The position numbers were made by a program, and so were the translations under genes. Positions 10,047 to 35,377 of a stretch of 64,000 bases of DNA are shown here, one piece after another. This DNA is from Euglena gracilis. Its lineage: Eukaryota. The stretch covers positions 33,333,455 to 33,397,454 of the forward strand of contig CP154954.1 in assembly GCA_039621445.1 (NCBI GenBank), read 5' to 3'. The notes below the pieces were generated by a model. The model had not been told where the DNA came from. It ran no database searches and saw nothing but the letters and a program-made list of their open reading frames with translations. The number at the start of each line of letters is the position of its first letter. Position 1 is the stretch's first letter.

Positions 10047-10356
10047 CAGGCTTCTGCTTAAGGGATTGCAGTCCCCCCCCCCCCGGGGAAAGGGCTGGAC
10101 TGAAGCTAGTCCAAATTTGGCCGCTAGCCCGTTTTTGGCCATTTTTGGGAATTTTTGGAACAAAATCAGCCAAAAATCTATTAAAAACCTGATTTCCACC
10201 TCGGCGCGCAGCGCCGGAGGAAAAAATTTTTTTCCAGTTGGGGGGACCCCCGGACCCCCCCCCCCCGAGGGGGGGTCTAGCTAGTCCATTTTTTCCAGTG
10301 TCTAGCCGATTGGCTAGCCAGTACCCCCCCCCCCGGGGTCCTTAAGCAAAAGCCTG
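10047..10356. mobile_element. hAT-like MITE (CAG...CTG termini, 8-bp TSD)
   Basis: TIR CAGGCTTCTGCTTAAGG / CCTTAAGCAAAAGCCTG (16/17). Flanks ACGGGAAT / ACTGGAAT (7/8). Confidence 0.85.
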
Positions 10357-14700: not shown

Positions 14701-15095
14701 TTGTATTGAAAACACACCCCAAACTTGATCATATGTCATACCCCCATCCTTTGTGCGTGAAATTTGACCAGCTGTGAATGTGGTTCCTCCAAAAGGGCAT
14801 AGAAAGGGTACAGGGGGAAAAAATGATGGAAAAATGACGGGAAATTTTTGGTGGTTTCCCATCATCTTTGTTTCCCATCATTTTTGTCCGGACTGTGCAC
14901 ACGAAAGCAAAGCATCAAGTCGTTGCACACTTTTTGCCATAAATTGTGGTTTATTGAATTTTGTATGTGAAGCTTTTTTGGCTTTAAATGGGCGTTGGGT
15001 GATTCTGGTTCCAGCATTTGTTTCCTTCAATATTGGGATGAATGCGTTCACTCACAGATGGAGAATGGAAGTCCAGTGGCAGCCTCACTGTGTGC

Positions 15096-18000
15096 TCACC
15101 TGCGCGTCCCTCACGTCCCTCACCCTGCACCTCCACAAGAACAAGATCGAGAGTGCCGGGGCGGAGGCGCTCGCGCTGCTGCAGCGGGCCGCCTCCCTGC
15201 ACACCCTGTGCCCAGGGCCGGGGCTCCACGGACGGGGCTGATAGGTCCAGGGCTGCCCTTGGAGGAGTGGGAGCACACCATTTGTAGGGGTGGGTGGTAT
15301 GCTCCAGGGGTGGGGTCAAGGCAGTTTATCCGCCTCGGGGGTGAAATTGATATCCGCGATTTTTCCGCGATTTCCGCAATTTTCCATAACTTCCCGCAAT
15401 TTTTCAGCATTTTTTTCCCTTTGAGCTTTTTTTCTCGCATGAACCTGAAATGGAAGGCGAAACGAGTTCCGGCCATTCCTGAACGTTTCACAAGGGAATC
15501 AGGTGCTTTTTTGTCATTTTGTTGCAAATTTGCCAAAAGTTGCCAAAAATATTTTAAAACTTGACAAAATTCTGGGTCTTTTTTAGGTTTTCCCCCAATT
15601 TCTGCTGGGAAATAATTCTGCTCACCTGACCAGATTTTACCCGAGACCAAAGTTTTCGGCAACTTTTTGCCAGTTTTGGCTTTTTCACCAAGAAATTCCA
15701 TGTTTCCCGAACGAGCATGTTCCAAATTACAAAAATCAAGTTTTTAGACCTTTTTGTTGGAAAAAATGTGAATAACGGCTCAAAAGATACACCTGTGTTG
15801 CAAAATGAGCAAATTTGTGAGTTTTTTTTTTCCAACCCCCACTTCCAGGAGAAGTGCACTAATTTTCAAAAACACATTTAAAAAATTTCCTGCAATTTTT
15901 ACGCAGTTTTTCCGAAAGACTCTGATATCTATCCCCCACCCCTGCACCCTTGTGTGTCCCAAGCACGCGAAAGTATGCCAAGCACATCAGATAACACTGA
16001 CCCCCCAGGTCATCCTGTGTATATTTTCTGTAATTCTTGTCCAGTGCACAAGGAATTGAATGTCACAAGGAATGAATAAAAAAAATACGGAGGTAGCCCA
16101 ACTGCAAACCTCGTCCCTGCCTCTGCTTGAACTTGTGGGACAACCAAGTGACGTCGGATGGTGCCGTTGCATTGGCACGCCTCAAAGATTCTGTTTGGGT
16201 CTCTGCCAATTTATCTTCTGAGCCTGCTTTGATGCATCACATTTCAACAGCAAATCCCAATCACAAGTAGCATGGGAGCCTGGCCTTGCTTGGACACTCC
16301 CCACAGGGGTGTCCAGCCAGTCAGCTGCTTTTCCAGCGAAGTTAGCTTTGGCAGCCGATCTCGCATTTCAGCCGTATCTCGTCCCGTTTGCGCAACAAAG
16401 GTTTTACCTAAGGTTTTACATTTCTTGTTTTTTTTCAGGTTTTACAATTTTTTTACATTTTTTTTCGGAACGCAGGGGAAACAAAACTTGGAAGAATTTA
16501 GATCAGGCAAAAAAACACAAAAATTGAGCCTTTGCCCCGGGGTTCAAATGGTGGCGATCCTCATGTGAGGGGACAGTTTGGAGAAATTCTAGAAAGGGTT
16601 TTTTAATTTTGAAGCTTTTGCAGTAGGTATGTCTGACATGAAAGCACCATGGAAACAGCCCTTGAATTAGTTGTGGTGTGGAGGAGGACTCGAGGAAAGA
16701 GTGTCCGGGAATTGCATTGTAAACCTCCCAAATTTCAGCACGGATGTGCGGAAAGCGGGGGCACACGTCTTTGGGCCTTCTGTCAATTTTCTTCAGAATT
16801 CCATCAGAATTAGGGTTCAACCCCCTATTTTTTTGAAAACCAAAATTGTTTCAAGACCACAAAAATGTTCTTTTTTCTGGGAAAGAAAGGGTACTCAAAC
16901 AAGTTCTGGGGTTTTTGTTTTCCATGTAACCCCTCATTTAGACAGATTTTTTTTATGTTTGGACCTGGGGGGTGTGGGGTGAGCTGGTCTGCTGGAACCT
17001 CCAGGGTGGGTTACCCCTCCAAATTTAAACAACCCCTCCAAAATTAAGCAGCACCCACATTTAAGCAACCTTTGGGGCTGAACCGATCGACATGGTGGGT
17101 GAAATGCCGGTGTAATCACTTAAATACATCGCAGTGAGTGTTTCGCCGACCAGGTCAGCTTCCCAAATTGGCCTCCAAGCAGGCGCTCGACTTGAAGGTC
17201 CAGGCGAAAAGTTGAAGCGTGGGCCGATTTCTTCCCCCCCCCCCCCAGTCCCTGCCCAGGACCTGCTGCAGCCCATCCCCTCTTCGGGGGGGGGGGGTAC
17301 TGTGAACCCGAAAAACAGCAGCCTGGCCTGGGCAGTGCACAACGGCAGGTGTCTCCATAGCACACGGCACATACACTTTGCATGTGTGTTTGGGAGCCTT
17401 CTGGCAGGGGTGGGTGGGGGGACCCCTCCCTCCCTCCATCCTGGTCTTTAAGAAATCCCTGCATTGAAGGCTTGGCAGGGGTCTGGACCCCAGAACTGTG
17501 CGGGAATCCTTGAACCCCCATGGGTATGGGTGGGGGGATGGGGGGGGCTAGCATGCATTCCAACCGGCAGAGGTCCCACCCCGCATCCCTTCGTGTTCTG
17601 GCGCTTGACCTTTCTGACAACGCCGTGGGGGACAGGGGTGCTACTGCCTTGGCTGGTTTGATTGGGCTCTCCACCGTGTGGAGTGGTTTATGCAATGGGA
17701 AGCACCGTAACGCAACGTCCCCATAACGCTTTACCGGGACAGTTTTATTTGGAACGAACCTTGTTTGGCACCTCTTGGCACCTCTTCTTTTGGCAGAGGT
17801 GCCAATAGGTAAGGTGCAGATGGTGCCAAAGTACAACAAGTGACAATCCTGCCAGGGTGAACTTTATTAGCCAAAACCTGCAGTCCAACAACTAAATGAT
17901 ATTGATGAATTGCATTGGGGGGAACCACAGTTTTCATCTACAATGAAGAAGGCCCATACTGGCCATCACACTGGAATGACTTCTTGTCACCCGTTTCTTA

Positions 18001-21000
18001 AAAAAAAGTAGGTGCTGATAACATGGCTATAAGAGTTTTTTTTCCACCTTTTTATTATTATCATCCTTTTTTGATTGGCTTTGGAGGGCCTTCCTCCGTT
18101 CCAGCCACTGCATTCGTTCTATTGTGTTCACTGTGTCAAATTGTCAACCACGTCTATATCTTTGGCATGCAACTAGATTTCCAAGACAGTAGTGATGTTG
18201 CGCGAACTCAGAACGGTCCAATCGTTTAAAAAAGGCAGTTGAAAGTCAAAAAAAAATCGTCATCTGTCGCTGGATTCAGCTGTTTCAGGCTATTCATGTG
18301 CTCTTGGTCATTCCCATTATGGAGTGCTCACTCGCTGCCAACTCTCAGCCTGTCGTGGGTTGTCCACCCTGCCCACTGTCCTTCACACCTCTCGTGTGCC
18401 AGGCGTTTGGAATCAACTTGGCCACGGCCTGTCACCCTGGCCCATATGGCACGGCCATTGGGGGGGGGGTAGTATAAAGCCCCCCAAATATAAACCTCCG
18501 CAGGAGGTTTGGTTTTGCCCGAATATAAAGCCCTCCCCAATGTGACACCCGCCGATCAGGGAAAACAGATGGGTGGATGTAACAATTTCCCACCAGAAAT
18601 TCTCCATTTTGGACAAAAATTGCAAATTCTGAGGTAAATTTGAGGTACACAATGAAAATTTGGTATAATTTTGGCACTTGACTGTGGTTGAAGGCTGCCA
18701 AAGTCAGGATGGGCCACCCAGAAACAGTCGATCCCCCCCAATTTTAAACTCCCCACCCCAAATATAAAGTCCCCCTTGAGGGTCTTGAAATCCCGCCCAA
18801 ATGTGAAGGGGGGGCTTTATATTTGGGGGGGGGGTTAGGTAAGGGCAGCCTCTCTTGCACAAGTGTCGTTGAAACTGTGCCAAAGCGCACTTTCGGAATG
18901 CCACCTGGCATTTCCATTGAAATGCTGTGTCGTTCACACGGCAAGTTGTTGCCCTCCCCTGTGTCAACAACACGTTCTTGGAACAATGATGTGTAACAAC
19001 AACATCCTTGGACAAAGAGGGGGTACCCGGGCCTGTCATCTCCTGATAACTGAACCAGCTTCTTTTTAGCTCAGAAGACCCCCACAGGGGGGGGGCTGGG
19101 GCCGAACCTCCTTCCGGGGTGGAGGTTCGGCCCCAGACGGGCCGAACCCCTGGAGGTCCGGGTTTCAGCGCGAAGCGCTGGAAGGTTTTTTTTTTTGGGA
19201 AATGCCTTCAGAGAGTCCGTTTTTGGGGATAGTCCCCGCTGTCCCGGGGGGGGGGGGTCCTGTGCCCGGCTGGGTGGGGGGGGGGGCCCGCCCTCCCCCC
19301 GGGCGCTTAAAAATAGAATCCTCATCCAGTTGGGAGAACTTTGCCTCACTGCGACCGCCGTCCGCTCCAATGCCGGACCTCGCAAAGGGCGCTGCCGCCG
19401 ATGCTCGACCTCCACAACAATCGGGTGGGGCCGCTCGGGGCGGCGGAGCTGGCTGGACTCCAGCGCCACGCGGGCCTCGCTCGGCTGTGCCTCGACCAGG
19501 CCGTTTTTTAAGCTGGTGCCGACCCCACCCCGGGGGGTGGGTAGTGCCTGCCTGGGCAGGCACCCCAAGGCACTCCAAGCCCAAACCCCGGGGTTGGTAA
19601 AAAAAAAAAGCCTGGCCTCGACCTCTCCCACAACGAGATTGGGGACATCGGGGCCTCCGCCCTGGCGGCCGCCGCCCTCCCTGTGGTCCCCCTTGAAGTG
19701 TTTTGCCATAAAGCTGCCTTTGGGTGCCTGGTGGCGTTGTATTTTCCAGTCCTTGGTGAGGGGGTATCAAAAGCATTGGGAAATGCTGAAGGTGCAGAGA
19801 AAAGCGTCACAAAGGACTGATATTTAAATTTGTAAAACTTTTCCTGAAAATTCCTCCTCCCTAGGGGAATAATGGACAGCCAATTGATCCACTTTTTTTT
19901 ATTTTTGCAATTTTCCGCAATTTTCTGCAATCTTCCCACAATTTTCAGCAGTTTCCCCTCGGTTTCCTGCATTTTGCCTCAATTCCCGCAATTTCCTGCA
20001 AATTCTCCAATTTTTTTGCTTTGCAAAATTTATCGCATCAATGAGTTCCGGCCATTCCACGGATGATATAAAAACGAAGGGGTAACACAAGTACCTTTTT
20101 CGTATGTGTTTACATTTTCTCGAAATCTTGGCAAATTTTTGTCAAAACCCGGCAAGGCCGGCCAATTCGGCAATTCTTTTTTTTCCTTTAAGTTCTGTTG
20201 GTAAATGATTTTGCCTTCAATTTGGACCAGATTTATCCCAAGACGAAATTTTTTGGCAAATTTTGTCATTTTTTTTTATTTTTTGGGCCAACGAAATTGC
20301 ATATGTTGTGGAAGCAGCATGTTTCCAAAATAAGAAGAAGTATAATTTTGTAATATTTTGTTGGAAAAAATGCCAAACAATGTTGCAAAATTTCTGGAGC
20401 AGTTGAAAAATTTTGCAGGAGTACGTGATTATTAGTTACTTCTATTCGGGGTGTAGCTCAGAATCGTGTCCTTCCAGCAGAAATGTGTACATTCCTGATA
20501 TCAGTTTTTTCCTGCAATTTCTCTGATGGCCTCCAATATCAGTTATTCCCCCCCCCCCCGTTTCCCTCTCGGTTCATTGATAATTTGCATTCTTCTGCTG
20601 AGGTTTGAGTTGAGCTTGGCATTGGCAGATTTCTGTTGAAAGGCAGGTTTCCAGCCACCCTTTTCATTCTACTTCAACGGGCTTGGGTCCTTGGACAAAT
20701 AAAATGCTCCAGAGTTTGTGAGAGTGAACAAGAGCCAGCGGAAGGGAGTGGTGGCATCCCCGTTTATGTCCCAATCCCGAGGTGGTGGGGGGGGCACCGA
20801 ATCCAGGCAGGTCGGCGGGCCGGAGCCTCGCCCACATGCCAGGCCTCCAGTGGCTGTCGCTGGACGTGTACAAAACCGACATCGGCCCGGCCAGCGGGGT
20901 GCCCGGCGCTGCCAGAGACCCCACCCTCCCCCTCCACCGGCAATCCCAGCCCACTGGACGGGAACCCCCTTGTGCGTGGCGGGGGCCCAAGCGCTGGCTG

Positions 21001-24000
21001 GACTGGGGGCGGCCCCGGCACTGCACACGCTGCGGCCAGGGCCGGCGGCGGCCCCCGGGCCCGCCCCGGCGCCCCCAGTCCGCAGGGCATGGGAAATAAA
21101 AAGAAAGGGGGAGCAACCACGCTTCTTAGGAAGGTCACAACCCTTCGGGGGTATGGCACCTCCAGCACAAGGCACCCATAGGGGTTGTTGAAAAGGAACC
21201 CGGGAGCCAGGCATTTTTTAAGGCAATTTTTTTTTCAAAAATTTACAGCATTTTTTAAGGCTTTTATGGCATTTTAAGGCTTTAAAGGCTTTTAAGGCGT
21301 TTTAAGGAGCCATTTTTCAGCCCTGTCCATTAAGGCGTTTAAAGGAGCCATTTTTCAGGGCTGTTCAAGGGCTGTGTGGGCATCGAACCAACATTTTTGA
21401 TTTTGCACGAGGTCCAAAATCAAAAATCAAAAACATACTTTTATTTATTTTTTTAATGCCAGAAATCATCATTTTTTCCCCGGAGCTGGCCTGTTTTTGC
21501 CGAGATTTTGCGCTTTCATTTTTGCTCAGTCGGAGAAAAATTCTGCCCATATTTTTAAGCTGCATTTAAAAACATTTAAGGTTTTGGCGCGTTTGAAAAA
21601 TGATGATCCCTGCCTGGAGGCCCCTCCGCCCCGGTCCACTCGCCAGACCTTGTCGATTGCGGCCGAGTGTTGTGCCGGGTGTTGCCGGCGACCCACCGGC
21701 CGCGGCCCTGGCGGCACCTGAACCTGGGCCGCAACCCCATCGGGGACGGCGGGCTGGCTGCGCTGGCGGGGCTGCGCACCGCCGCCCGCCTCGGCACCCT
21801 GTCCCTCGACGCCGCCCGGGCCCACATCGGCCCCGGCGGGGCGGCGGCGCTGGCGAGGGGGGCGGCCTCTGCCATACCCGAACGAGGGATCCGTGACCCG
21901 TGTGTGACCGCTGTGACTTTCCAACTTCCAGCTCTGTTTGTACAGTGGCGGTGTTTCAATGGCCGCGACAGACGGGCCATTGATCAGTTTGGACCCTCGG
22001 GTTGGTGTGCCCCCCCCCCTCGCCGGCCAGGTCCCCGATGGGCCCCACTGCCGCAGGCGGGAGGCCGCCCCCGCCGGGCTGCTGGCGCAAGCGCCGCTCC
22101 TCCACACCCTCCGCCTGGACCTGTCCGGCAACCACCTCGGGCCGGACGGCGCCGAGGCCCTCGCTGGCCTCCGGGCCTCCACGTCCCTGCGCTCTCTGGC
22201 CCTCAACCTGAACCAGAACCAGCTCCGCCGCGGGCAGAGGGCAGTGGCCATGGCTATCATTGTTTCCGCCAATCAATGACGACGATTGTTTGACGTTGAA
22301 GTGATGGTTTTGATCATGACTTGTTTTTGCAGTGGACACGCAAGAGAATTTGGTGAAAACCCGTTGTGAAAATCTGAAACTTTGGGAAACCCCTGTTGTG
22401 CAACTCGCTCATTCAGAGCCTGATCCATAGAGCTGCCCTTTTCCCACCGTAGATGACAAAATTTGGTCTACTTTTGGGCCAAATCGTAACCCTAACCGTA
22501 TCCCACACTAGTGGGCCTGGCCTCCTGGGTAAAAAGCTGCCAATATCAACCCTTGGATATCAAACCAAATTATTCATTTAGATTCGTCGGCACTCCCCCT
22601 GTCCAATCATACGGGCACTCCCCGTGGCGAGGACCCCACTGGTATTCCGTCACCAATGCTCCAACCTGTCCCCTGGGCCCGATGGGGTTTGTTGGCTGGC
22701 GCAGCTGCGGGAGATGCGTCAGTTGCAGACGGTGGTGCTCCAGCTGGGCCTCGGCCAGTGCTCCGAACCCATATGGCCGTGCGGAGGAAAACAATCACAA
22801 GGCCTGAGCTAAGGATGTTCCAGATACAGGGTGGAACCCCCTTTCATAGCCTTCGCGCGTGAATAACTTGGGCCTGGCGGGGAGTTGGGGGTCAAACGGA
22901 GGTGATTCGGAAGGCAGCCCGAAACTACTGGGCCCCCCCGGGGGGGGGGGCCCAGTAGTTAATCCGGGGGGTCAAAATTTTTTTTTGCGTTAGTGATGGA
23001 ATAGGGTTAGGTGCGCGACTTAGGCTTAGGGTTAGGCCTAACTTGTACACCGAACACCCGTCTATAAATTAGGCCTAACCCTAAGCCTAAGTCGCGCACC
23101 TGACCCTATTCCATCATTAACACAAAAAAACTATTCTGACCCCCCGGATTAACTACTGGGCCCCCCCCCCGGGGGGGGGGGGCCCAGTAGTTTCGGGCTG
23201 CCATTCGGAAACTAGAAATCCAGTCGCTCGCGACTGAAAAAAAAAATTCCGGGAACCGGGCCAGGATCATGGTGATAATCAGTCGGTTCCCAAGGTGGCC
23301 CGAGGGGAGGGGGGGGGGTTGGACCCAGGGGTAAGCTTCGCTCTTACCCATAAAGAGATAAGAGCTCAAGCGACCCCCCACCTACAACCCCCCAGGGGTT
23401 AGAGGTGGGGGGGTTTAGGAGGTCCCTCCCTCCCCCTCATTCATGGGCGAGGGGGGCCGGACTGAGGACGATGCCGATAAAAGGCCGCAGACTCTCATTC
23501 CCCTCTGGCAGGACTTTAATGTGCACCAGATAATGATTGGGGTCTGTAATTCAGCCACTGTTCAGAAGGTGGAGGCGGCCCGCCCCCCCCCCCCTCTCTT
23601 CCGACTTTGCCATTTTGCTGGGGTCCAAAAATCGGTCAAAAAATCTATTTTTTGAAAATATCTCGAGAAAACGTACATTATTTCCGGAAATGTGGGTCTG
23701 ACGAAATGCACCCCCGGAGGCCCTCTATCGCCCCCGTTCGCCGTTTTGGCCGCTGACACGCCTGGCCCGTGTTCCGGCGCGCTTTTGCGGCCCAAAACGG
23801 CCATTTGGGGGGGGGGGGTTTTGGGTCGTTTTAGGGTCAAAAAATCGGTTTTTCCAAAATATCTCGACAATGAATCAAAATCAAAGAAAATGTCCGGACT
23901 GCAAAATTGAAGCCCTTGGAATGGTTTATTTTTCCCCCAATTCTTCGTGTAGCCCGAGTTACCATTTTCCGTTACCGAGTTACCGAGTTACCGAGTTACC

Positions 24001-27000
24001 GAGTTACCGAGTTAGCCATTTTTCGGCCAATTTTGGCCCATTTCAGGGGCCATTTGGGCTGTTTTCGGGGTCAAAAAATCGATGTTTTAAGATATCTCAA
24101 AAATGAAGCAAAATCAAAGGAAATGTCTGGAGACCTAAATTGAAGCCCTTAAAATGCCCTATCTAACAGTATTTTGATTTCCCCGCATCTCCCCGCCTAG
24201 CTCGAGTTACGGTCATTTTTTTTGGCCGATTTTGGCCGTTTTGTACAGTTTTGGCCTGATGTGACTTGGCCGTTTTCGGCCCTTTTTGGTCAAAAAAGTC
24301 GAAAAAAATCGAAATTTTTTTGCCTGAAACAATGTTCTTTGGCCTCCCGGACCCGGAAAAACTGTTTCTGAGCCGAAAATGAGCGTTTTTCGACCCTACA
24401 ACTACCTGTTTTTTTTTCTTTGCACGAAACCCATGCAGTTTGGCCAGGAACGGGTCAAAGAAGTCGAAAAAAATCGAATTTTTTTTTGTTCGAAACGATT
24501 CTTTTTGGCCTCCCAGACCCGGAAAACCTGTTTCTCAGCCAAAAATGAGCGTTTTTCGACCCTGCGCCCCGTTTTGGGCCCGAAACCCATGGAGTTTGGC
24601 TCTAAAATGGGTAAAAAAAAGTCAAAAAATCCTATAAAACGGGTATGGGGTGTATGGGGGGGATTATCATTGTCATTTCAGAAAGTTCCGTAAAATCATT
24701 GAAAGTCACCGTAAATTGAAAGAGTGTAATTTGTAAATTAAAAATTACGCGAACTTTGCAATGCTAGTCTTTTCGGCATTCCATCACATGCATGTCCCAT
24801 TAAGAGCTCAGCACTACTCAAAACCTGGTTTAATGTCAAACCCAGGGTGGGGGTCAGATCTGAGGGCTTCGTCTGCCCTGGGGCGCCTTCTTCGCTTTGT
24901 AATACCATTGATAGGTAATCATCAAACTTGCTAATGATAAACCCTACTGCGGCCAGGATGGAGGGTGGGCACATGAACCCCCCAAACAAAAATCCCCCCA
25001 GTTATTTTTTGGACACTCGAAGTCAGGGTCCCGGGGAGGGGTGATATTTGGAGGTTATTATCAGGGCAACAGTTTTGAAGTCAAGAATCGACCCAAAAGC
25101 GTTTCAATAGGTTCTAATCATCAATATTTTGTCATTTTTTTGCACTCTTTTCGACATATGTTCTGCACCAAACCATCCCTTTTTGTTATTTTTGCAACAT
25201 TCCCGCTCATTCTATTCTCTTTTTTTCTTTGCTTTCATCTGTCGGAGGGGGTGTTATTACTTGAGCAGCTGAAGTCAGTCCTCGGGAGGGGGGGTTCGAA
25301 GGCCGGAAAATGTCATTTTGGGGGAAATTTTTCCTCACGACCAGGCACAACTCGGGTGGGGGGTTAGTACCGCCCGAAGTAACCCCGAGACGAGCTTAAT
25401 GAAATTCAGCCTGGCGGGTGTAGGACCGGGGTGGGCCACTGGCACGAACCAGCTGGGGGAAGGTGCGCCGAAGGAGCTGGCTGCGTTGGGCGCCTCCCCG
25501 TCACTGGAGTGGCTGCCCAGGTGGCCCTGGAGGGGCGGGGAGACACCGCCGCTTTTTCTGCTGAACAATCTGCACCGCCTTGAAGTCACTGCGCCCGCAC
25601 CAAAGACTGTGAAACAACGTCTTTCTGGGTGTGGAGATGGCATTGCAATTGTTTTTGTACAAGGCAACATGGCATGCGGGTAGCAGGGCCCCCCCCCCCC
25701 CCCGGGGGGGCCCCCCTGCTACCCACGACCCTGCACCTGCCATTAGCGCACCTAACCCTACTCCTTCAATTAACCCCGTAATAGCGCAACATGGCCATAT
25801 TGCGCAACATGGCCATGTTGCGCAACATGGCCATGTTGCGCTATTATGGGGTTAATTGAAGGAGTAGGGTTAGGTGCGCTAATGGCCATGTTGCGCTAAT
25901 GGCCATGTTGGCAGGTGCAGGGTCGTGGGTAGCAGGCCCCCCCCCCCCGGGGGGGGGCCCCCCTGCTACCCGCCTGCCGGCAACATATATATTTTTTGAA
26001 CCCTGTTCAATGAGCAACGCAACGGACCAATTTTCAGATCCCAACTCCTTGTGAATCTGGTGCAACCCCCCCCCCCAACAGAAGCTCTGGGCGGCTGCAT
26101 GGTCCAACCCATTTGCACAGGCGCTCCCAGAGGTGCATTCTTTGCTAAAAATGGGCCTTCTTCATGTTCCAAAAGAATATTGAATTAACTTTATTGGAAA
26201 GCCATGGAGGTCGGTAGTAGGCTTTTCTTTTTTTAAGCCAGCAGCCCCCCCCCCCGGGGTGGGTGGGTGGGTCTGGGACCGGACCCCCCCCCTAGGGGGT
26301 CCCAGGCTGGAGGGGGGGGTCCCCAACCCACCCAGCCCAGCGCTGGACCCCGGGGGGGGGGGGACAAAATCGGGCCGTCTGAGGGCATTTCCCAAAAAAT
26401 TTCGGCGCTTTGCGCCGAAACCCAACCCGGTGGGGGTCTCAAGAAGAAGTCTGTTCGGTAGGCCCGGACCATAATGGTCGGTGGAGCACCTGGTCAGGCA
26501 GTCTCCACTTTGCTGGGCTTTCTGAAGAATATCAACAAAAATCTTCCAGGCGGGATCAAAATAGAAGCGCCACCTGAGGTGGCGGATTGCATTGAGCGCT
26601 CCCATACTTCTATTTGGGGGGTTGATGGGGGCTCGTTTTACCGACCTGGTTAAGGTTTTTACAGGCATTTTCAAAAATTTAAGGCATCGATTTTCTAAGG
26701 GAAGTCCCAAGGGCCATCCCAGGATAGAATGGGGGTCAGAATCGAAACAGTTGGAAACCCCATTTTTTCGAGTGTCCGACAGAGAATTTTTCCAGCAATG
26801 CCAGAAATCAGTTTCCCCTGGAATTAGCTTGCTTTTGCCAAGAGTTTGTGACTTCATTTTCAGCTCGAATTTTGCAAATCTTGCTGTGGTGGGTGGGGAG
26901 GGGGACGACCACTCCCTTCACCCCATCCTGGGTGGGGGAGTGGGGGGGGGTCCACCCCACGTCAGGCATTTCGCTGTTTCTGGGCATCCCTCACCTCTCC

Positions 27001-30000
27001 CCTCTTGTCTGTTCGCCGTAAAATTCTGACAAGCTCTGCCATAATATGTCAAGGACCTAATCACCTGTTTTTGCTGCGAATAAATTTCGCCCATTTCCCT
27101 GCAGGTTTTAGGTTTTTGATTGAATGTGCGGGAACAGCTTTTTTTTTAAGCTTTCGTTAAGGAATGCTGGTTCCCTTTCCAGAGGCTTTGAATTTAATAA
27201 GGCTTAAAGGGTGTTTATGAAAAGTGGGCCATCTTTAAGACCTTCTTCCCTGAGTGGGTCTCCGGCAAATGACTTTCGAGTAGCAACTGGTGGGATCCAA
27301 ACGGTGTCCACCGAGCTTTATGGAAGGGGAGGAGCTATTGGACACAACGGTCAGGCATTTGTTGGCAAGACAGCGGGTTTGCTGGCAGGCTGGGACGCCT
27401 TTTTTGTGACAATGGGCGTAGAGTGACACCTGCGAAGGGACGCTTGACCTCTGGACCAACCGCCTCGGCAATGGCGGCACAGTGTGTGGGCCCCGACTGG
27501 GCACTGTTCCGCTGGTCAGTGGGCGGGCAGAGGGGGTGTTGGGGAAAATGCAAACACAGTTTTTGCGGGTGTTATGTGATTCGGTTTCGGTGAAATTTGT
27601 GGGTTTTGCTTTTGAGTGTGTTTTTGCGTATTTTTTTTGTATTTTTTTTGTGCGGTTTCTTTTGGTGGTTTTTCAAATTCGGCTGGGAAGTGATTTCGAC
27701 TTAGTTTTGCGTTTTTGGGCCAGATTTCCCCTTTTTTGTCCACCATGCAAAAATTGCAAACAGTGAAATTGCCAATATAATGCCTTTGGAATTCGTTCTT
27801 CCACCAAGTCCTCTGAAATTGCATTAAATCCATTTTTTTCCTGTTAATTTCTATTTTTTTGTGTTTCGCGTCGCTTTTCTGCGAGTCCATGTTGTGTTCC
27901 CTCCCCTCCCCCTGCTGTGAGGAGGGGTCAGGGTCGGGGTTGGGGGGCAGGCAGTCGGGGGCTGCCGCCGGGGCTGGCGCTGCTGCGTGCTGCCTCGCTG
28001 CTGCGGCAGCTGGCCCTGGACCTCGGCGACAACGACGTCAGCGACTTCGGCGCCACCGCCGTGGCCCAGCTGCGGCACCTGCCAGCGCGGCCGGCGCTCA
28101 CACCCCCTTCCGCGAAGCAGGTCTCTGTCGACCCGTCTTCCCTCTGATAAAAACCTGGCAGTTTTTCTTTGAAAAATAGCCTTTTGAAAACGTTTCACCT
28201 TTGCGCGAGTGGCCCTCTACAGGGGGGGGGAGCTTGCATAATTTTCATTTTTTTTGCATAATCAGGTTTTCCCGAAATTTGCATTTTTTTGCATTTTTTT
28301 GCATTTTTTTGCATAAAATATTTCGCCCTGAAAATTTTTTGTAATTGGTCGCCATATGTTTGCATTTTTTTTTGCATTTTTTGCATTTTTTTGCATGAAA
28401 TATTTTGCCCTGAATTTTTTTTTGTAGTTGGTCGCGATATGTCATGGTTTTCTCTGGTCCCTCTCCAGTTGCCTGGGGTCTGTGGGGTCTCAGTGCTTGC
28501 CATTGTCTTCCAGGAGGTCTTCTTTGTGAAACATTGAAAGGTACACTGGCATTGTCATATGTTTACGGATTTTAGGCAGCAAAACTCTGATACATTCCAG
28601 CCTTTTTCTCAGGGATTTTATGCAAGTTGCATTTTTTTGCTTTTTTTTGCATTTTTTTGCATTTTTTTGCATTTTTTTGACTTGCATATTTTGAAGGGCC
28701 AAGTTGCATCCCCCCCCCCCCTGCTCTCTACCACCAAAAAGCAGAGCAACCCAACCAAAGCACCAAAGGTTCTCCTTTCTTCTTCTTCTTCTTCTTCTTC
28801 TTCTTCTTCTTCTTCTTCCTTTTTCTTTTCCCTTCTGCTTCTTCTTCTTCTTCTTCCTTTTTCTTTTTCTGTTGTCTTCATCCAGAAAGATTTTATCTCA
28901 AAACGCAGCAAAAAGGTTCGAAAATAAAAACAACGTGCATCACAAGACAGAATCAAGAGGGACAAAATAAACCCTTGCATTTTTGTCAAATTATCCGAAA
29001 TAAAAATGGTTCTCCCTTTTTCTTATCCCTCGATATTGCCCTTTCTTACCTCACCTTCTTCCTTCCTTGTCCTCACAAAAATGCAGGCAAGGCAAGGCAA
29101 GGCAAGGCAACCGAACCGTGGGCTTCGCATGCTGGCAACCGACAATTAAACCCCCCCGCAAATGTAAAACCCCCCCGGTTTTATATTCGGGCGGAAATTT
29201 CAAGACCCGCAGGGGGGTTTTATATTTGGGGGGGGTTTATATTCGGTCGGAAAAATCAACTTCCTGGCGGGATCCAGTACCGGTAGTCACTTTTTCGGTC
29301 CAAAATCACAAATACACCCACCCTTGGGGGTCCAAACATTTCACTTTTCGGGCGAAGGAGCAAGCAATTTTCACATGTTTTTGGTAAAAATTGTTCCCAA
29401 ATCTGCCAAAAATCACAATTTCAGGAGAGATTTTGTCGATTTTTTTCCCTTCCGGCGCTTCGCGCCGGAGGGGGGGGGTTATATTTGGGCGGGATTTCAA
29501 GGTCCAAGGGGGGGTTTATATTTGGGGGGGTTTACTGCAGGTGGGTAATTGCTGGGTGATTGCCGCGGTGACATTTACTGCGGGGGTTAACAACGCACTC
29601 CCTGCCCAAAAAGCGCAGAATAACAGTGTGCCCATTTTAAGACGACTGACCGAAAATAGACAAAAGCCGGATCTTGTCGGAATCAGAATGGCGTCTGGCA
29701 TGTGAGTGAAACTATCAGAATGCTTTTCTGATCATCAGATGCACAAATGATACAGATTTCAACCCCCCGTTTTCCAGCATAACTGAGGTCCCAAAGGTTT
29801 TCAATATTGTAACTGGCTGCTGGAGTTAATTACCGCCGAGCAACACAACATGCGCGGTAATTATCCATCCGCGGTATTTGTCGGTCGCCAGTGGGCCTTG
29901 CAAAGCCCCATGTCATTGATTTTTCAACTCAGGCTTCCCCACACACTGGCCGCTGCCATTCCTGGAGACGTTCTCCCTGCGCCTCAGCAACAACCGGCTG

Positions 30001-31786
30001 TCAGACGACGGCGCGCGGGCAGGGCTGAGCAGGACTCCCAGACACCCTGTGGGTGTATGGGTGGTGGGTTAGGCGTGGGGGACCCCTTTCCCCATTTCAT
30101 AGCAAGCATCCTGTGTTGGCTTCTTTGGTGCCAAAGGAACTTTGATTTGCCCGGTGCCATCTGGGCAGGGCGGGGTCGACGACATTCCGGCGGGGTCGAC
30201 AACATTCACGGGGGGACCGACATTCCGGCGGGGGTCTGCGACGTTCTGGTGGGGGTCGGCGACATTCCGGCGGGGGTCGGCCGACATTCTGGCGGGGGGT
30301 GGGCCAACATTCCGGCGGGGGGTCAACAACATTCGGGGGGGGACCGACATTCTGGCGGGGGTCTGCGACGTTCTGGCGGGGGTCGGCGACATTCCGGCGG
30401 GGGTCGGCCGACATTCCTGACCAGCCCTGCGCGTGGGCGCTGGCCACCCTCCGCGATGCCCCCGCCCTGCGGTCGCTGGTCCTTGACCTGTCCTGGAACT
30501 GCGTCCAGGCGGCCGGGGCAGGGGCACTGGCCCTGTTCCACTCGTGCCCCCGCCTGGAGGTGCTGCACCTCCGCCAGGGGGCTGCCATGCAGAGCGCAGC
30601 ACTCCCCTGTGCTCTCGCCCGCCCCTTGGCAAGCGTCCAGAGTGGCGGGCTGGGGATGATGGGGGGTCTCTGTTGCTGCCTTTGGTCTGATCGACGACTG
30701 CGTGTCATTTTGAGTGTCTTTTTAAAAGTGTACTTGAAAAAGGTTGATTTTCAACACCGGAATTGCCCTGCCTGACTGGACTGGCAGCCCCCCCCCCTCC
30801 ACCGGGTTTGGAGAAGCCTACCCTGTTCAGGCAAAGCCCCGTCTGTGAAGCTGCCCAGAAACCCGACAAAAACCCTACTCAAAAGCGGCAATTGGTCGCT
30901 CTGCCGCACCAACGCCCCCCCCCCAAGTGGCAGCGCCATGCGAGTGACCTGGCAGGCAACCCGGTGGGCACCGCCGGGGCGGTGGCCCTCAGCGACCTGT
31001 GGCGGGCGCCGGGGCTGCGGGTGCTGCACCTGGACCTGCTGGGCTGTGGGGTGGGGGATGAGGGGGCGGCCGGCACGGCGGCCGCTGAGACTCATCATAT
31101 ATTTTGGACATTGGGGTCTGTCCAACCACATAACCCCCCCAATAGAAGTGCGGGGCCGCTACAAGTGCAGGGTCAAAATAAAGCGCACCCCCCGCCGCCG
31201 AAGGCGGCGGTCCGCAACAAGCGCACCCCCCCCCCATTTTGATGGGATTTCTAAAGGAAATCAACAAAAATCGTGCACGTAGCACACACCCCCCACCGCC
31301 GGAGGCTGTGGTCCGCTATAAGCGCACCCGTGCTTCTATAAGGGGGGTTACACTATGGAAATAGCGCTGGAAGAGGGTTCCTCCAAGGCCTGTGAGAAGG
31401 GGTGCTTTCGGCGCACACAATGCGACCTCCCCACCGGACACTTGTCACCCCTGGGCAGTTGTCACCCCTCCGGTTGTGCTGCCCACCATTCCCAATGCCA
31501 GAAGCGGGGAATGGAAACTTCAGATGGCCCGGTTTTGGGGGAGGGTCCCACCCCGGGCTGGGGGGGTCGGGGACCCCCCTCCCTCCCCCCTCCCCTCGGC
31601 GTCGTAAAAGAGCCGGACCAGGACGGGCCGGAACGGGGTTGGGAATGGGGTTGGGAGGGGCCCCGGCGGCCGCGGTCCCCCAGCCTGGTGGCCCTGCGGC
31701 GTGCCCCGCAGCTGGCCAGCCTGTCCCTGAACCTCGCCAGCAACCCGGTGGGGGGGTCTGGCCGAGCCGCACTCACCGCCCTCCGC
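15096..31786 (+). CDS. Multi-exon leucine-rich repeat protein (RNI-like, about 28-aa repeats)
   Basis: Inferred exons: 15096-15209, ~17583-17675, 19400-19493, 19620-~19667, ~20821-20888, 20978-21033, 21716-~21855, ~22079-22231, 22681-22752, 25447-25514, ~27439-27476, ~27970-28079, 29954-30016, 30435-30571, 30946-31071, 31682-31786. Joined, they give repeated LxxLxLxLxxNxIGxxGAxALA, e.g. LARLCLDLSHNEIGDIGASALA and LRSLVLDLSWNCVQAAGAGALA. Some small exons are probably missed. Confidence 0.85.
18470..18841. mobile_element. MITE family with CCCCCCAAATATAAA termini
   Basis: Inverted CCCCCAAATATAAA / TTTATATTTGGGGG ends. Related sequences at about 29147-29535 and 35556-35760. Confidence 0.55.
19497..19614. 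mobile_element. 118-bp hAT-like MITE inside LRR coding sequence; corresponds to nonconventional intron 19494-19619
   Basis: Perfect 8-bp TSD GCCTCGAC (19489-96 and 19615-22) and termini CAGGC...GCCTG. Removal restores ARLCLDLSHNEIG. Confidence 0.92.
22913..23202. mobile_element. Foldback element with nested terminal palindromes
   Basis: About 135-bp inverted arms around a very short loop. Each arm has ACTACTGGGC-Cn-Gn-CCCAGTAGT and TAGGGTTAGGTGCGC (one mismatch in the right arm). Confidence 0.85.
23956..24014. repeat. 8-bp tandem repeat (GAGTTACC)n
   Basis: GAGTTACC units seen directly. Confidence 0.85.
24280..24640. repeat. Inverted copy of the 8780-9625 repeat unit
   Basis: GGCCTCCCGGACCCGGAAAA and GCCGAAAATGAGCGTTTTTCGACCC are reverse complements of motifs in that array; about 2 units. 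Confidence 0.8.
25671..25978. mobile_element. Foldback element with nested palindromes
   Basis: Arms GGGTAGCAGG(G)C-Cn-Gn-CCCCCCTGCTACCC and TAGGGTTAGGTGCGC. The centre holds repeated GCGCAACATGGCCATGTTGCGC palindromes. Confidence 0.85.
26218..26453. mobile_element. hAT-like MITE (TAG...CTG termini, 8-bp TSD)
   Basis: Flanks GTCGGTAG / TTCGGTAG (7/8). Termini TAGGCTTTTCTT / AAGAAGAAGTCTG. Confidence 0.75.
28778..28856. repeat. (TTC)n microsatellite
   Basis: Seen directly; interrupted once. Confidence 0.9.
30020..30429. mobile_element. hAT-like element corresponding to nonconventional intron 30017-30434; contains a ~21-bp minisatellite
   Basis: TIR CAGGGCTGAGCAGGA / TCCTGACCAGCCCTG (13/15). 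Flanks CGCGCGGG / CGCGTGGG (7/8). CGACATTCCGGCGGGGGTCGG-like units at about 30170-30415. Confidence 0.85.
31131..31350. mobile_element. Tc1/mariner-like MITE remnant inside an intron
   Basis: Inverted TAACCCCCCCAATAGAAG / CTTCTATAAGGGGGGTTA. Confidence 0.55.
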
Positions 31787-34126
31787 GGCCAGTGTTGGCA
31801 CTATGCCGGTGGAGAGAGAGGGATGTTTTCTGAGCTGTTTGGTGCTGTCATCTGTTTTATTGGACAGGGCCGAATTTTCCTATGGGACCACAGAGTATGC
31901 TGCACCACATCAATCCTCGGAATGCTGCAGGAAAAAAAGGTCAGTTTCCCTTCCGTACTTTCACATGAGGCGGGTGGCTTTATGCGGGAACTGTGAAATA
32001 AGCCCCCCAAAGACCAAGGTCTTTTTTGGGGCCCATTAGTGGAAATCTCTCGGGGGGGGGTCTTTTTGGAAAGAGGCTTCTTCCTGGGCCCCCCAAAAAC
32101 ATCTTTTTCTGTTTCCCAAATACACCAAAATTTTTCCTTTCGTGCTTTGCGCCATCTAAATTGGGATATATTGACTGCAGCTTAACCTTTGACTGCCCCC
32201 CTTCGAGGGCTGTTGAGAGTGATCAGGGGAGAGGTTGATCTCGTGGGACCATGAGGCCACATTGGAATTTTTCAAGTCATGACGTTGTGCCTGCACCATG
32301 CATCCCCCACACAGAAAAGTGGGAAGAGGGCAGGAGGCAAGAGCAGCACTGTGGCGCAAGGGTATAGACCCACCCACGGGAACCACACCAACCACCCAAG
32401 GTGAGTGCATGCCCCTACAGCGCTGGAATTACACCAGAGTTGCTCACGTGGCCAGGGGAGCAACACAGGAGCATTGGTGTAAGGGGTCCCTGCCCACTCA
32501 CCACACAAACTGGGCCAGAAGCAAATTTAGCCCCAGGCCATAAACAGACAAGGAGCAACTTAGGGCAAGTGCAAGTGCAGGGGGGGTTGTATGGAGGGAC
32601 CCGGGTCTGACCTTTCGCGCTTTCGGTCCCGTGGTGCCGCGGAAACACGCAGTTTCCGGGCAACCTTTGGGCAATTCGGGGAGGGTGGGCCCTCAATTTT
32701 GGGAATAGGGTTGGGGTTGGGATTTGGCTAATTTTATGGACCAAGTTAGGCCAGAAGTTAGGTCCCGATTTAGAAAGATTTTCAAACCACTTTTTACCAC
32801 CTCCCCCTTGTCCAACAACTGGGCTTGTCCAACGACCGCCTCCTCCGGTCAGATACGATCTTTTTGGATACAATGTTGGTCCGATAATTGTTGAAGGATT
32901 TGTGTGATTCAAATTCGCTTTTTTGCATTTGCTATTTCAGAGAAGCTTTTCTGGTAATTTCTTGGGATGGCTACCATGAAATGGCTGAAAATGCCCAAAA
33001 GTGGCTTTAAAAAATTAATAGCTCCAAAAAAGGCAACAAACTACCCCAAATGAACCCTCCCCCCGAATAATACCCCCCCCCCCAAATAATACTCCCCCCC
33101 CAAATAATACCCCCCCCCCCTAATTTTGGGCCGACGACCCGGATTTTGACCTGAAAATGAAGGTAAAAACCACAATCTCTGACAACAAATTCTGAAAAAA
33201 AAATCGATTTTTCTGGATCATCTGGCCTCGAAAATTGCTAAATTTCATGAGAACGTTCAAAAAAAATGTCCCCAAAGGGGGGTTTTGGGTGCTGTTTTGG
33301 GTCCTTTGGGTCTTCGAAAATTTTGGGGTGCTATTACCCCCAAATTATACCCCCCCCTCGGGCTGGGAGGCAAAAAAAAACCCAAAAATGGTCAAAAAAG
33401 CCACATACCCCTGCCTGTGGTCAATCTTTCGTCGACCTGGTCCACCCCCCTTGTCTAACGACCCCCCCCCCCGGGTCGGAGACGAATATTGGCTGTTTTA
33501 GCAACCCCCCCTGGTCGTTGGATAAATGGGGAGGGGGAGGAAAAAATGCCTGAATTCGCCCTAAATTCGGCCTAAATTCATCTGGAATGGAGCCTGACTT
33601 CTGCCTAATTTCCTAAAAACGTGTGACCTCCGGGATGAGGATTAGCTCAGAACCTAACCCTGTTCCAACCAAATGACCCAACTTTCCTAGAAAGTTGGAC
33701 CTGGGTCATTCCATACGACCCCCCCTCCCTCATCATTCTTAACGCCCCGCCGGGGGGGGGGGTGAAGAGTGATGCTGCCAAATTGAAATTCCCTGTGTTT
33801 TTTCTCATAACAGAAATGTCAAAAAATCAGAAGTTTCATCATTTTTGAGCCTTGAATCGGGATTTTTTTTTTGGAAGATTCCAGGGAAGTTTTTCACCGT
33901 CCCCGGAGGTTCGGGCTGTCACGGGGGTTGGGGCGGTATTTTATTTTCGGATTTTGCTCAGCCCAGAGAGGTGTTATTTTTGGGGGGTTAGCAGCAAAAG
34001 ACCCGTGAAAAATCCACAATTTGGAGGGTAGCAGGTCCGTGACCAGCTGGTGGTGTGATTCCCAGCGACAGAAACCCATTGTCCCCCCCCCCCCAGGACC
34101 CCTCATGAGACGCCGCCACTGTCTTC

Positions 34127-34212
34127 CTGATGCAAACCCCCCGTTCCGGCTTGGCATCGTGCTGGACGGAGATGTGATCACTGTGCCGAAGGCCTACGCC
34201 TGCGGCACTTGA
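34127..34212 (+). CDS. Possible last exon of the LRR gene
   Basis: CACTG at 34117-21 can pair with CAGTG at 31790-94. A GC-rich coding-like stretch DANPPFRLGIVLDGDVITVPKAYACGT* follows, but its frame is not fixed by the 3+5 rule. Confidence 0.3.
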
Positions 34213-35377
34213 CCCCGGCGCCCACACTGCCCACACTGGCGGCCACACTGGCGGCTTTTGACCGTCCAGTTGCCTGCCAACCCACACTGTCGCGGATGCC
34301 CCGGATGCTTTCCACCGTTCCCTGTCTTGCTACCTCCCCAGTCTCTCCTGTCAATGCTGCCACGGTCTCCCTGCTCCGCTCAACGCCGCTTTGCTGGTGT
34401 TGTTGGTAGAAGAGGAGCTCGCTGCCTACCTCCCGAGGATTTGGGCTTTCCACACCTCCGAAGGGGGTGAGGTCCTGTTATACTGTTTTTTTTCATTGAA
34501 TCTGAAGAGGTCCCACCAACCAATGCTGGTGGCAGTGTTGATTTTGGGCAATGAAGGCTGTCTCCTAGAAATGATTTGTTATTTGACTTGTTTCGTAATA
34601 AGAAAATGAGAATGCCATTGGGGGGGGTTGGATTGTTGCAAGATGCTGAAATTGTTTGTGCTTGGATCCCCTTTCCTGCTGCACCATCAACTGCTGAACT
34701 GCTGCCTCGGCATGTATCTCACCCACATTTTTCCGCTTTGAAACGGGTTTCTTTTGAATCCCACTGATTTGTCCCATTCAGACTTCCATCGCTCTTCGCC
34801 ATCGCTCAAGCATTTGTGCCGACCATTGTGGGAAAAGGTGCATTTTTGTGAAACTCATGGGCAACGTCGAGCAATTGGAAACACGGCAACGATGGACCGG
34901 GAGATGAGGTTGCTTCCAGGGTGAGGGTGAAGTGAAAGAAGTGCTTTTTTCCCTTGTAAATGAGTTGGAACGCAATGCTCTTTCCATGAACAGTTCAGGA
35001 TTGAAGGACGATGGTTTGGAAAAGGGTGGACCGTGAGCTAAGCTGTAAATGGAAGCGGTGGACCGTGAGCTGAGCTGTTAGCCCCCGGTCCTTCAGAGAG
35101 AATGGCACATCTCAGCGTCGTCTTAAGTCGTTTTAGTGCCGTTAAGCATGTCCAAGAAGACAACAGTGTGGAGGATGACAACTGTTGATGAGCGAGATTT
35201 ACCTCCCCCTCCCCTTGTCTGAGCATGGAAAGACGGGGAGGACGGGGGCAGGGGGTGGTGGTGCTTATTTCGCCAAAACATGGATACGGGAAAACAGAAG
35301 CCCTCGTTTTCTTCGTGTGATATCCGGCCATCGGACAGCCGCCCTTCTCCAATGTCAGGCCGGAACTGCAACCTGGA

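Follow-up and report, generated by a model that had tools for sequence, protein, structure and literature searches.

The nonconventional (NC) introns of euglenids are the closest described system for the locus reported here, a leucine-rich repeat (LRR) gene of Euglena gracilis that is interrupted by a long series of introns. The gene lies in a window of 64,000 nucleotides (GenBank assembly GCA_039621445.1, contig CP154954.1, positions 33,333,455 to 33,397,454 of the forward strand), and all coordinates below count from the first letter of that window. An earlier note, made from the letters alone, had flagged nine introns of this gene as sharing one splice geometry and as forming an apparent series of decaying target site duplications (TSDs). 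In published NC introns, Milanowski et al. place the motif CAG at positions +4 to +6 and CTG at positions -8 to -6 (PMC3935182; reviewed in PMC11282704). Knock-in mutagenesis has defined the splicing code as 5'-N3CDG-/-CH'GN5-6|R (Nomura et al. 2025; PMC12501133). Specifically, the 5' spacer of 3 nt is intolerant of changes in length, the 3' spacer has a length of 5 nt, 6 nt being accepted as well, and a purine opens the next exon; a CAG...CTG signature at the 3+5 spacing was sufficient for splicing in those knock-in tests (PMC12501133). According to the same source, the full code is present in 61.2% of the NC introns of E. agilis, where NC introns account for 71.8% of the total and direct repeats make 84.4% of introns "slidable". 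NC introns are excised as circular RNA by a non-spliceosomal route (PMC11282704, PMC12501133).

The origin of these introns has been linked to mobile elements. In 2014, descent from transposable elements of the miniature inverted-repeat type (MITEs) was proposed in a paper according to which euglenids had yielded no transposable elements up to then (PMC3935182); in the published work consulted, the transposon origin has the standing of a hypothesis. A review of 2024 describes "TSD-like" repeats and a pyrimidine|purine consensus at NC introns (PMC11282704), and a newly gained gapC intron in one strain of E. agilis carries an 8-nt direct repeat, longer than those at other introns (PMC4770533). 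Merlin transposons with 8-bp TSDs and terminal inverted repeats (TIRs) ending in GG are reported from E. gracilis (PMC8101967). Base-paired non-canonical introns are also found in hemistasiid diplonemids, for which the descriptions consulted do not include the CAG/CTG motif.

The nine flagged introns are new instances of this published euglenid type, and both their splice geometry and the transposon idea are already in print. They share with it non-GT-AG borders, CAG at +4 to +6 in eight and CTG at -8 to -6 in six, paired ends, spacers of 3 nt and 5 nt (sometimes 6), a purine opening the next exon, direct repeats that make junctions slidable, and the company of other intron types in one gene. 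Nothing essential differs: three of the nine lack CHG at the 3' motif and one lacks CDG at the 5' motif, in keeping with the incomplete occurrence of the full code among published NC introns, and the arms of the neighbouring intron 31787-34128 are spaced differently (Table 1). Because the CAG/CTG 3+5 geometry matches the euglenid literature, a reading of these introns as dinoflagellate introners was dropped.

We interrogated the junctions by aligning RNA over window positions 15000-34999, using two sets of RNA-like contigs (X1 and X2) and two raw RNA-seq runs, X21 and the size-fractionated X24. Joint counts are among the joints listed, with 83 further joints beyond these. A single X2 contig of 2179 nt covers most of the LRR gene in spliced form. 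When the 18 introns are removed from the window sequence, one open frame runs to a stop in the last exon and contains 18 LRR anchors spaced exactly 29 amino acids apart, and Pfam LRR_6 is matched by all four exon translations tested. Since coding letters gained or lost would break the spacing, this exact periodicity is an internal check on every junction, and it bears out the expectation of the earlier note that splicing restores both the frame and the LRR register.

RNA joints place at least six of the nine flagged introns directly, with the predicted coordinates contained within the slide of each joint, and the remaining three are supported indirectly, so that the nine are cut as had been predicted. 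Raw X21 reads cross five of the six direct joints (4, 5, 2, 1 and 1 reads). For intron 20889-20977, the loose end of an X1 contig at 20891 goes on with nine letters of 20981-20989; for intron 21034-21715, a contig piece starts at 21714, at most 2 nt of slide from the predicted junction; and for intron 22232-22680, a contig piece stops at 22230, no more than 1 nt of slide away. The seventh X2 record has 359 contig letters from 22230 to 30435, equal to the summed predicted exons in this interval (1+72+68+45+110+63). At every allowed slide of the RNA-defined joints, all nine introns have borders other than GT-AG or GC-AG, in agreement with the earlier note, which found none with GT-AG ends.

Counted from the intron ends, the inverted-repeat arms begin after 3 nt on the 5' side and after 5 nt on the 3' side. 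In this register, CAG occupies +4 to +6 in eight of the nine introns (the exception, 31072-31681, has ACG) and CTG occupies -8 to -6 in six (TTG in 20889-20977, ATG in 30572-30945 and GGT in 31072-31681). The full CAG-CTG pair is present in six, and the other three keep paired arms in this register as well; across the nine, 5-9 of the first 10 arm positions match. We scored arm complementarity over the first 10 nt at the 14 RNA-defined joints, allowing for their slides, and found 102 of 140 matches at (3,5) versus about 63 off the diagonal, on which the 3' spacer has 2 nt more than the 5' spacer. At the three slide-free joints, 17656, 22753 and 30572, the score is 21 of 30 matches versus 5-12 off register, and the two of these that were flagged, 22753 and 30572, sit exactly at 3+5. 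Arm identity stays high at (2,4) and drops at (1,3) and (0,2), indicating that the stem is often one pair longer than CAG/CTG. Duplexes between cognate intron ends average -23.1 kcal/mol versus -17.2 kcal/mol for mismatched ends, and none of 20000 permutations reaches the observed sum. A purine opens the downstream exon in eight of the nine flagged introns (28080-29953 has T); among all 18 introns, 17 follow an exon that ends in a pyrimidine and 17 precede an exon that starts with a purine. Exceptions to the 3+5 spacing fall outside the flagged nine, namely 25515-27438, 31787-34128 and three introns with GT...CC ends.

Intron 19494-19619 is a young MITE and probably a recent insertion. It consists of a 118-bp element (19497-19614, arms CAGGC...) plus one copy of the 8/8 TSD GCCTCGAC, and its hairpin fold has a z score of -3.2. 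Together with the two sister copies in Table 1, it makes up a set of three elements with CAGGnnTTTTTTTAAG termini, whose TSDs match at 8/8, 7/8 and 7/8. Their terminal motif, CAGG followed by two variable bases, a T run and AAG, occurs 10 times in the window versus 1.75 expected, a count that 0 of 100 shuffles reach. Within the intron, position 19538 is covered by 12 X1 and 10 X2 contigs with an identity of at least 95%, nearly all with a base unlike that of the window, indicating that close copies exist elsewhere. Family copy number was judged inside the 64 kb and by contig counts. A Pfam scan limited to ten long open reading frames (ORFs) found no transposase among them and only a sub-threshold kinesin match.

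An unrelated TIR element, 22913-23202, is nested within intron 22753-25446 and has the termini GGCAGCCCG. Of 247 inverted-repeat pairs, no other is flanked by a direct repeat of more than 4 bp; its own measures 8 bp, and repeats of 5-7 bp are absent. A joint, 22904->23203, skips this nested element exactly with a slide of 8 nt and is carried by 2 X2 contigs, 5 X21 reads and 6 X24 reads. The contigs and reads that skip the element are far deeper than the exons of the LRR gene. Their likely source is the surrounding repeat, in other copies with an empty site; removal at the RNA level is the alternative.

Taken together, we assign a probability of roughly 0.8 to the following reading: the locus at 15.1-34.4 kb, in what the intron type marks as nuclear DNA of a euglenid and most likely of a Euglena species, is an LRR_6 gene with at least 18 introns, of which the flagged nine are euglenid NC introns cut at 3+5, and the intron at 19494 is an element with an 8-bp TSD. 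From the paired arms, the fixed 3+5 offset, the precise removal from mRNA and the 8-bp duplication observed at the youngest intron, we infer how insertion and restoration of the frame would proceed. A TIR element with an 8-bp TSD would insert in an exon, its terminal inverted repeats would pair in the pre-mRNA, and the NC splicing activity would cut 3 nt ahead of the stem and 5 nt beyond it. As 3+5 equals 8, the element and exactly one TSD copy would be removed, which would restore the frame as it was before insertion. The intronic parts of both TSD copies would then be free to change as long as the spacer length is kept, and introns 30017, 28080 and 15210 would be cases that keep 6-7 of the 8 TSD positions.

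We examined the flanking 8-mers for such vestiges. Flank identities of the nine introns, in order, are 8, 5, 5, 4, 3, 6, 7, 1 and 5 of 8; the values reported before for 19494 (8/8), 30017 (7/8), 28080 (6/8) and 20889 (5/8) are correct, but the remaining introns are not all lower, as 21034 and 31072 also reach 5/8. The sum of 44/72 lies above the 19-29/72 (about 2.6/8) of 14 controls in which the downstream 8-mer was shifted by 1-12 nt, and flank identity is thus higher than composition predicts. The flanks also share a GC-rich consensus, roughly GCCNC|GGC upstream with pyrimidine|purine at the junction. A consensus-aware null was therefore built by pairing the upstream flank of one intron with the downstream flank of another. 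Permutation against these mismatched pairs gives P=0.006 when the nine are tested and P=0.024 when all 18 are; for as many as four introns with at least 6/8, P=0.003. This signal is carried by 19494 (8/8), 30017 (7/8), 28080 (6/8) and 15210 (6/8), the last of which had not been flagged. Among the nine, the identities 8/8, 7/8 and 6/8 stand out, and the other six (5, 5, 5, 4, 3 and 1) lie inside the mismatched-pair null. In a window-wide scan, 3 of 1058 CAG...CTG pairs with arms of at least 8/10 have flanks of at least 7/8 versus 0.45 expected, a result that is weak alone; shifted-flank controls give 0-4 matches, the -4 shift being contaminated by CTG itself.

Several observations count against the reading given above. 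The cut position is fixed without slide at only two of the nine flagged joints, the others being compatible with it. Of 865 listed exon positions, 11 (about 1.3%) differ between the RNA contig and the window, indicating that the RNA comes from another allele, a paralogue or another strain, and the label RNA for X1 and X2 is itself a guess. At 19494, where the TSD is perfect, an allele that was never occupied gives the same joint as splicing. For eight of the nine flagged introns the window contains no further complete copy, and BLAST of all 18 introns against the window returned nested repeat fragments only and no second whole copy of any intron. As for the flanks, mismatched pairs already average 3.72/8, and 20 of 72 reach at least 5/8, indicating that most of the "series" is consensus and not a pairwise TSD. 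The nine introns other than the flagged ones sum to 23/72, no better than the null (P=0.82). Finally, flank identity is uncorrelated with arm identity or intron length among the nine (Spearman rho -0.22 to 0.10, P>0.5).

Without that correlation, and with identities of 5/8 or lower inside the mismatched-pair null, the graded decay series put forward in the earlier note is not demonstrated. A few introns do retain genuine traces of an 8-bp duplication. Support for a TSD origin is good at 19494-19619, and such an origin is plausible for 30017 (7/8) and 28080 (6/8); flank identities of 5/8 or lower should not be taken for remnants of a TSD. In the other introns, the two flanks agree no further than the common junction consensus would make them, which decides a transposon origin neither way.

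The rival that survives best holds that most of the nine are not decayed insertions at all: flank similarity would reflect a cut-site preference or the GC-rich codon context, only 19494 and perhaps 30017 would derive from transposons, and the rest would be, for example, converted older introns. We consider it rather unlikely. The mean of the mismatched pairs is well above the offset controls, the upstream 8-mers are commonly GCCNC|GGC-like with the pyrimidine|purine junction that the review gives as a consensus (PMC11282704), TSD and TIR identity do not correlate, and three GT-starting introns in the gene look intermediate. Yet the four introns with at least 6/8 exceed the null that already allows for consensus; the same flank consensus could equally be a target preference of a transposase, and all nine introns have paired terminal arms like those of the proven MITE.

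A further alternative concerns 19494-19619 alone, whose joint might come not from splicing but from transcripts of an allele or paralogue never hit by the MITE. The exon differences between RNA and window fit such a source, and with a perfect TSD the empty site and the spliced product are identical. However, the same contig carries all the neighbouring NC joints, and the element has the CAG...CTG 3+5 signature that suffices for splicing in knock-ins (PMC12501133), making this alternative improbable. Least probable by our estimate is intron gain by double-strand-break repair, with direct repeats made by microhomology or fill-in instead of by a transposase: Milanowski et al. 2016 proposed break repair for the 8-nt repeat at the new gapC intron (PMC4770533), but the 19494 family has common termini and further copies with 7/8 repeats, also 8 bp long, at their sides, the unrelated nested TIR element has a perfect 8-bp duplication, and Merlin elements with 8-bp TSDs are reported in E. 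gracilis (PMC8101967).

Returning to the reading of 19494 as an inserted 8-bp-TSD element, we compared the locus with known transposons. MITE-like TIR transposons of the hAT or Merlin type are, like 19494 and its sister copies, short and non-coding, with TIRs, 8-bp duplications, multiple copies with common termini and copies outside exons. The hAT elements have 8-bp TSDs and YARNG-like TIR starts. CAGNG is found in seven of the nine 5' arms, and we take the likeness to hAT as a lead only. The terminal GG of Merlin fits the nested element 22913-23202 and not the CAG-type arms (PMC8101967). The introners of Micromonas, Aureococcus and dinoflagellates offer a parallel in outcome, as a DNA transposon in an exon is removed from the mRNA with one TSD copy and the frame is restored; in contrast to the introns of the LRR gene, they are spliceosomal, use GT/GC-AG sites partly co-opted from the TSD, and have TSDs of 3-5 nt (PMC11282704). 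The introns of the LRR gene have non-canonical borders, and their cut is set by distance from the stem.

We tentatively extend the reading of 19494 to a general proposal, which we hold to be possible and rather less likely true than false: because the 3+5 stagger equals the 8-bp TSD, TIR elements with such TSDs that land in exons would be "born spliceable", and the bulk of Euglena NC introns would be relics of hAT- or Merlin-like MITEs. If so, removal at the RNA level would be the exact inverse of integration, for a class that comprises more than 70% of introns in E. agilis. The CAGGnnTTTTTTTAAG family, with one copy an intron and two not, would still be young and could lead to both the transposase and the NC cutting machinery. 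In the euglenid NC intron literature searched, supplementary data lying outside the search, we did not find the equality of 3+5 and TSD length stated, and the literature search returned no paper joining Euglena, hAT, transposon and nonconventional introns and no relevant one joining euglenids, hAT and TIR, the one match being on MITEs of barley. The locus provides a clean single-gene case in which an NC intron can be shown to belong to a multi-copy MITE family, its 8-bp duplication still perfect, sitting beside older introns of the same geometry whose duplications are eroded or absent. What it adds to the published record is the tie between an NC intron and an 8-bp-TSD MITE family, together with a control on flank identities of 5/8 or lower. 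Run across the whole genome, the consensus-aware flank test could tell what number of NC introns descends from transposons.

We also compared the positions of the introns within the 87-nt LRR unit. Offsets of the flagged nine are 18, 44, 13, 45, 30, 79, 55, 18 and 57 nt; they mostly differ, and 19494 and 30572 coincide (P=0.35). Across all 18 introns the offsets are 13, 81, 67, 11, 18, 65, 44, 13, 65, 45, 30, 11, 56, 79, 55, 18, 57 and 75, with exact coincidence in four pairs versus 1.76 expected (P=0.10); the shared offsets could reflect a target preference. BLAST of same-offset introns found no colinear similarity, only short termini and one inverted nested repeat, and independent gain, perhaps with a target preference, is thus the simpler reading. 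The suggestion that the introns were gained independently after repeat expansion is therefore plausible; the accompanying view that their positions are unrelated fits most of the nine, the one coinciding pair being the exception.

Table 1 Features of the LRR gene and of the repeat elements in the window. Flank identity compares the 8-mers at the two junctions; ends are written as 5' spacer and motif...3' motif and spacer.
Feature	Position	Strand	Flank identity	Ends, arms and other characters	RNA joint and support
Ribonuclease-inhibitor-type LRR gene, partial	15105..34438	+		19 exons seen; stop codon in last exon; 5' end outside the stretch examined	
NC intron, flagged	19494..19619	+	8/8	GAC CAG...CTG GCCTC	19488->19615, slide 9 nt; X1 and X2 contigs, 4 X21 reads
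NC intron, flagged	20889..20977	+	5/8	GGC CAG...TTG TGCGT; frame and LRR register kept	
NC intron, flagged	21034..21715	+	5/8	GGC CAG...CTG GCGGC; complementary arms 8 nt; frame kept	
NC intron, flagged	22232..22680	+	4/8	GGG CAG...CTG GGCCC	
NC intron, flagged	22753..25446	+	3/8	GGC CAG...CTG GCACG	22752->25447, no slide; X1 and X2 contigs, 5 X21 reads, 1 X24 read
NC intron, flagged	28080..29953	+	6/8	TGC CAG...CTG GCCGC	28078->29953, slide 6 nt; contigs and 2 X21 reads
NC intron, flagged	30017..30434	+	7/8	GGG CAG...CTG CGCGT; arms 15/20	30016->30435, slide 4 nt (predicted position at slide 0); contigs and 1 X21 read
NC intron, flagged	30572..30945	+	1/8	CGC CAG...ATG CGAGT; arms 8/10 at 3+5	30571->30946, no slide; X1 and X2 contigs only
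NC intron, flagged	31072..31681	+	5/8	arms ACG.../...GGT instead of CAG/CTG; arms 9/10	31069->31680, slide 2 nt; contigs and 1 X21 read
NC intron	15210..16124	+	6/8	GCC CAG...CTG CCTCT	15208->16124, slide 3 nt
Intron, GT...CC ends	16193..17582	+		no clean 3+5 CAG/CTG	16192->17583, 10 X21 reads
Intron, GT...CC ends	17656..18339	+			17655->18340, no slide, 9 X21 reads
NC intron	18371..19399	+		GCC CAC...CTG CCGCC	18370->19400
NC intron	19667..20822	+		GGC CGC...GCG GGCCG	19666->20823
NC intron	21855..22077	+		GAG GGG...CCC GCCGG; 12-nt perfect arm	21854->22078
NC intron, 3+6 spacing	25515..27438	+		GCC CAG...CTG CGAAGG	junction inferred: an open frame and agreement with the 359 contig letters are obtained only with exons of 68+45 nt
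Intron, GT...CC ends	27484..27969	+		GTG TGG...CTG CCGCC	27483->27970
NC intron	31787..34128	+		CAGTG...CACTG arms 3 and 7 nt from the ends	31786->34129
MITE-like element, 310 bp	10047..10356	.		terminal motif of intron 19494; TSD 7/8; nothing places the element in an exon	
MITE-like element, 311 bp	49913..50223	.		terminal motif of intron 19494; TSD 7/8; nothing places the element in an exon	
Nested TIR element, 290 bp	22913..23202	.		within intron 22753-25446; 27-nt perfect TIR beginning GG; perfect 8-bp TSD ATTCGGAA	

Several introns contain repeats of their own. Introns 22753-25446 and 28080-29953 hold very high-copy repeats, with contig word depths in the thousands and up to 43 contigs at one position, as well as microsatellites and short tandem repeats, among them CTT in a run close to 28780 and repeats of TTTTTGCA around 28280 and 28640. 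Intron 30017-30434 has an internal tandem repeat of about 125 nt that is 94% identical. Long C-run/G-run palindromes (C8-16 then G7-10) flank or sit in many repeat units, for example 25678-25971, and are also present in the three CAGG...TTTTTTTAAG elements. The three GT...CC introns have paired arms without a clean CAG/CTG 3+5 and resemble the "intermediate" introns of euglenids.

At exon positions 21759, 30511, 30520, 30526 and 34173, every RNA contig and read differs from the window. Rfam at its gathering threshold gives 0 matches in the window. Inside intron 31787-34128, X24 reads of one strand pile up to about 60 over 32245-32420 with a sharp left edge at 32245, where 47 reads run on into a common unrelated sequence; the interval shows several fixed base differences from the window and has no Rfam match, and the signal probably stems from a repeat inside this intron, another copy of which would be abundantly transcribed. 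Downstream of the LRR gene, an ORF at about 36226-36355 (+) has the sub-threshold Pfam match to a kinesin motor (E = 0.0037, 16.7 bits versus a cut-off of 29.3) and may belong, as an exon, to a kinesin gene next to it.

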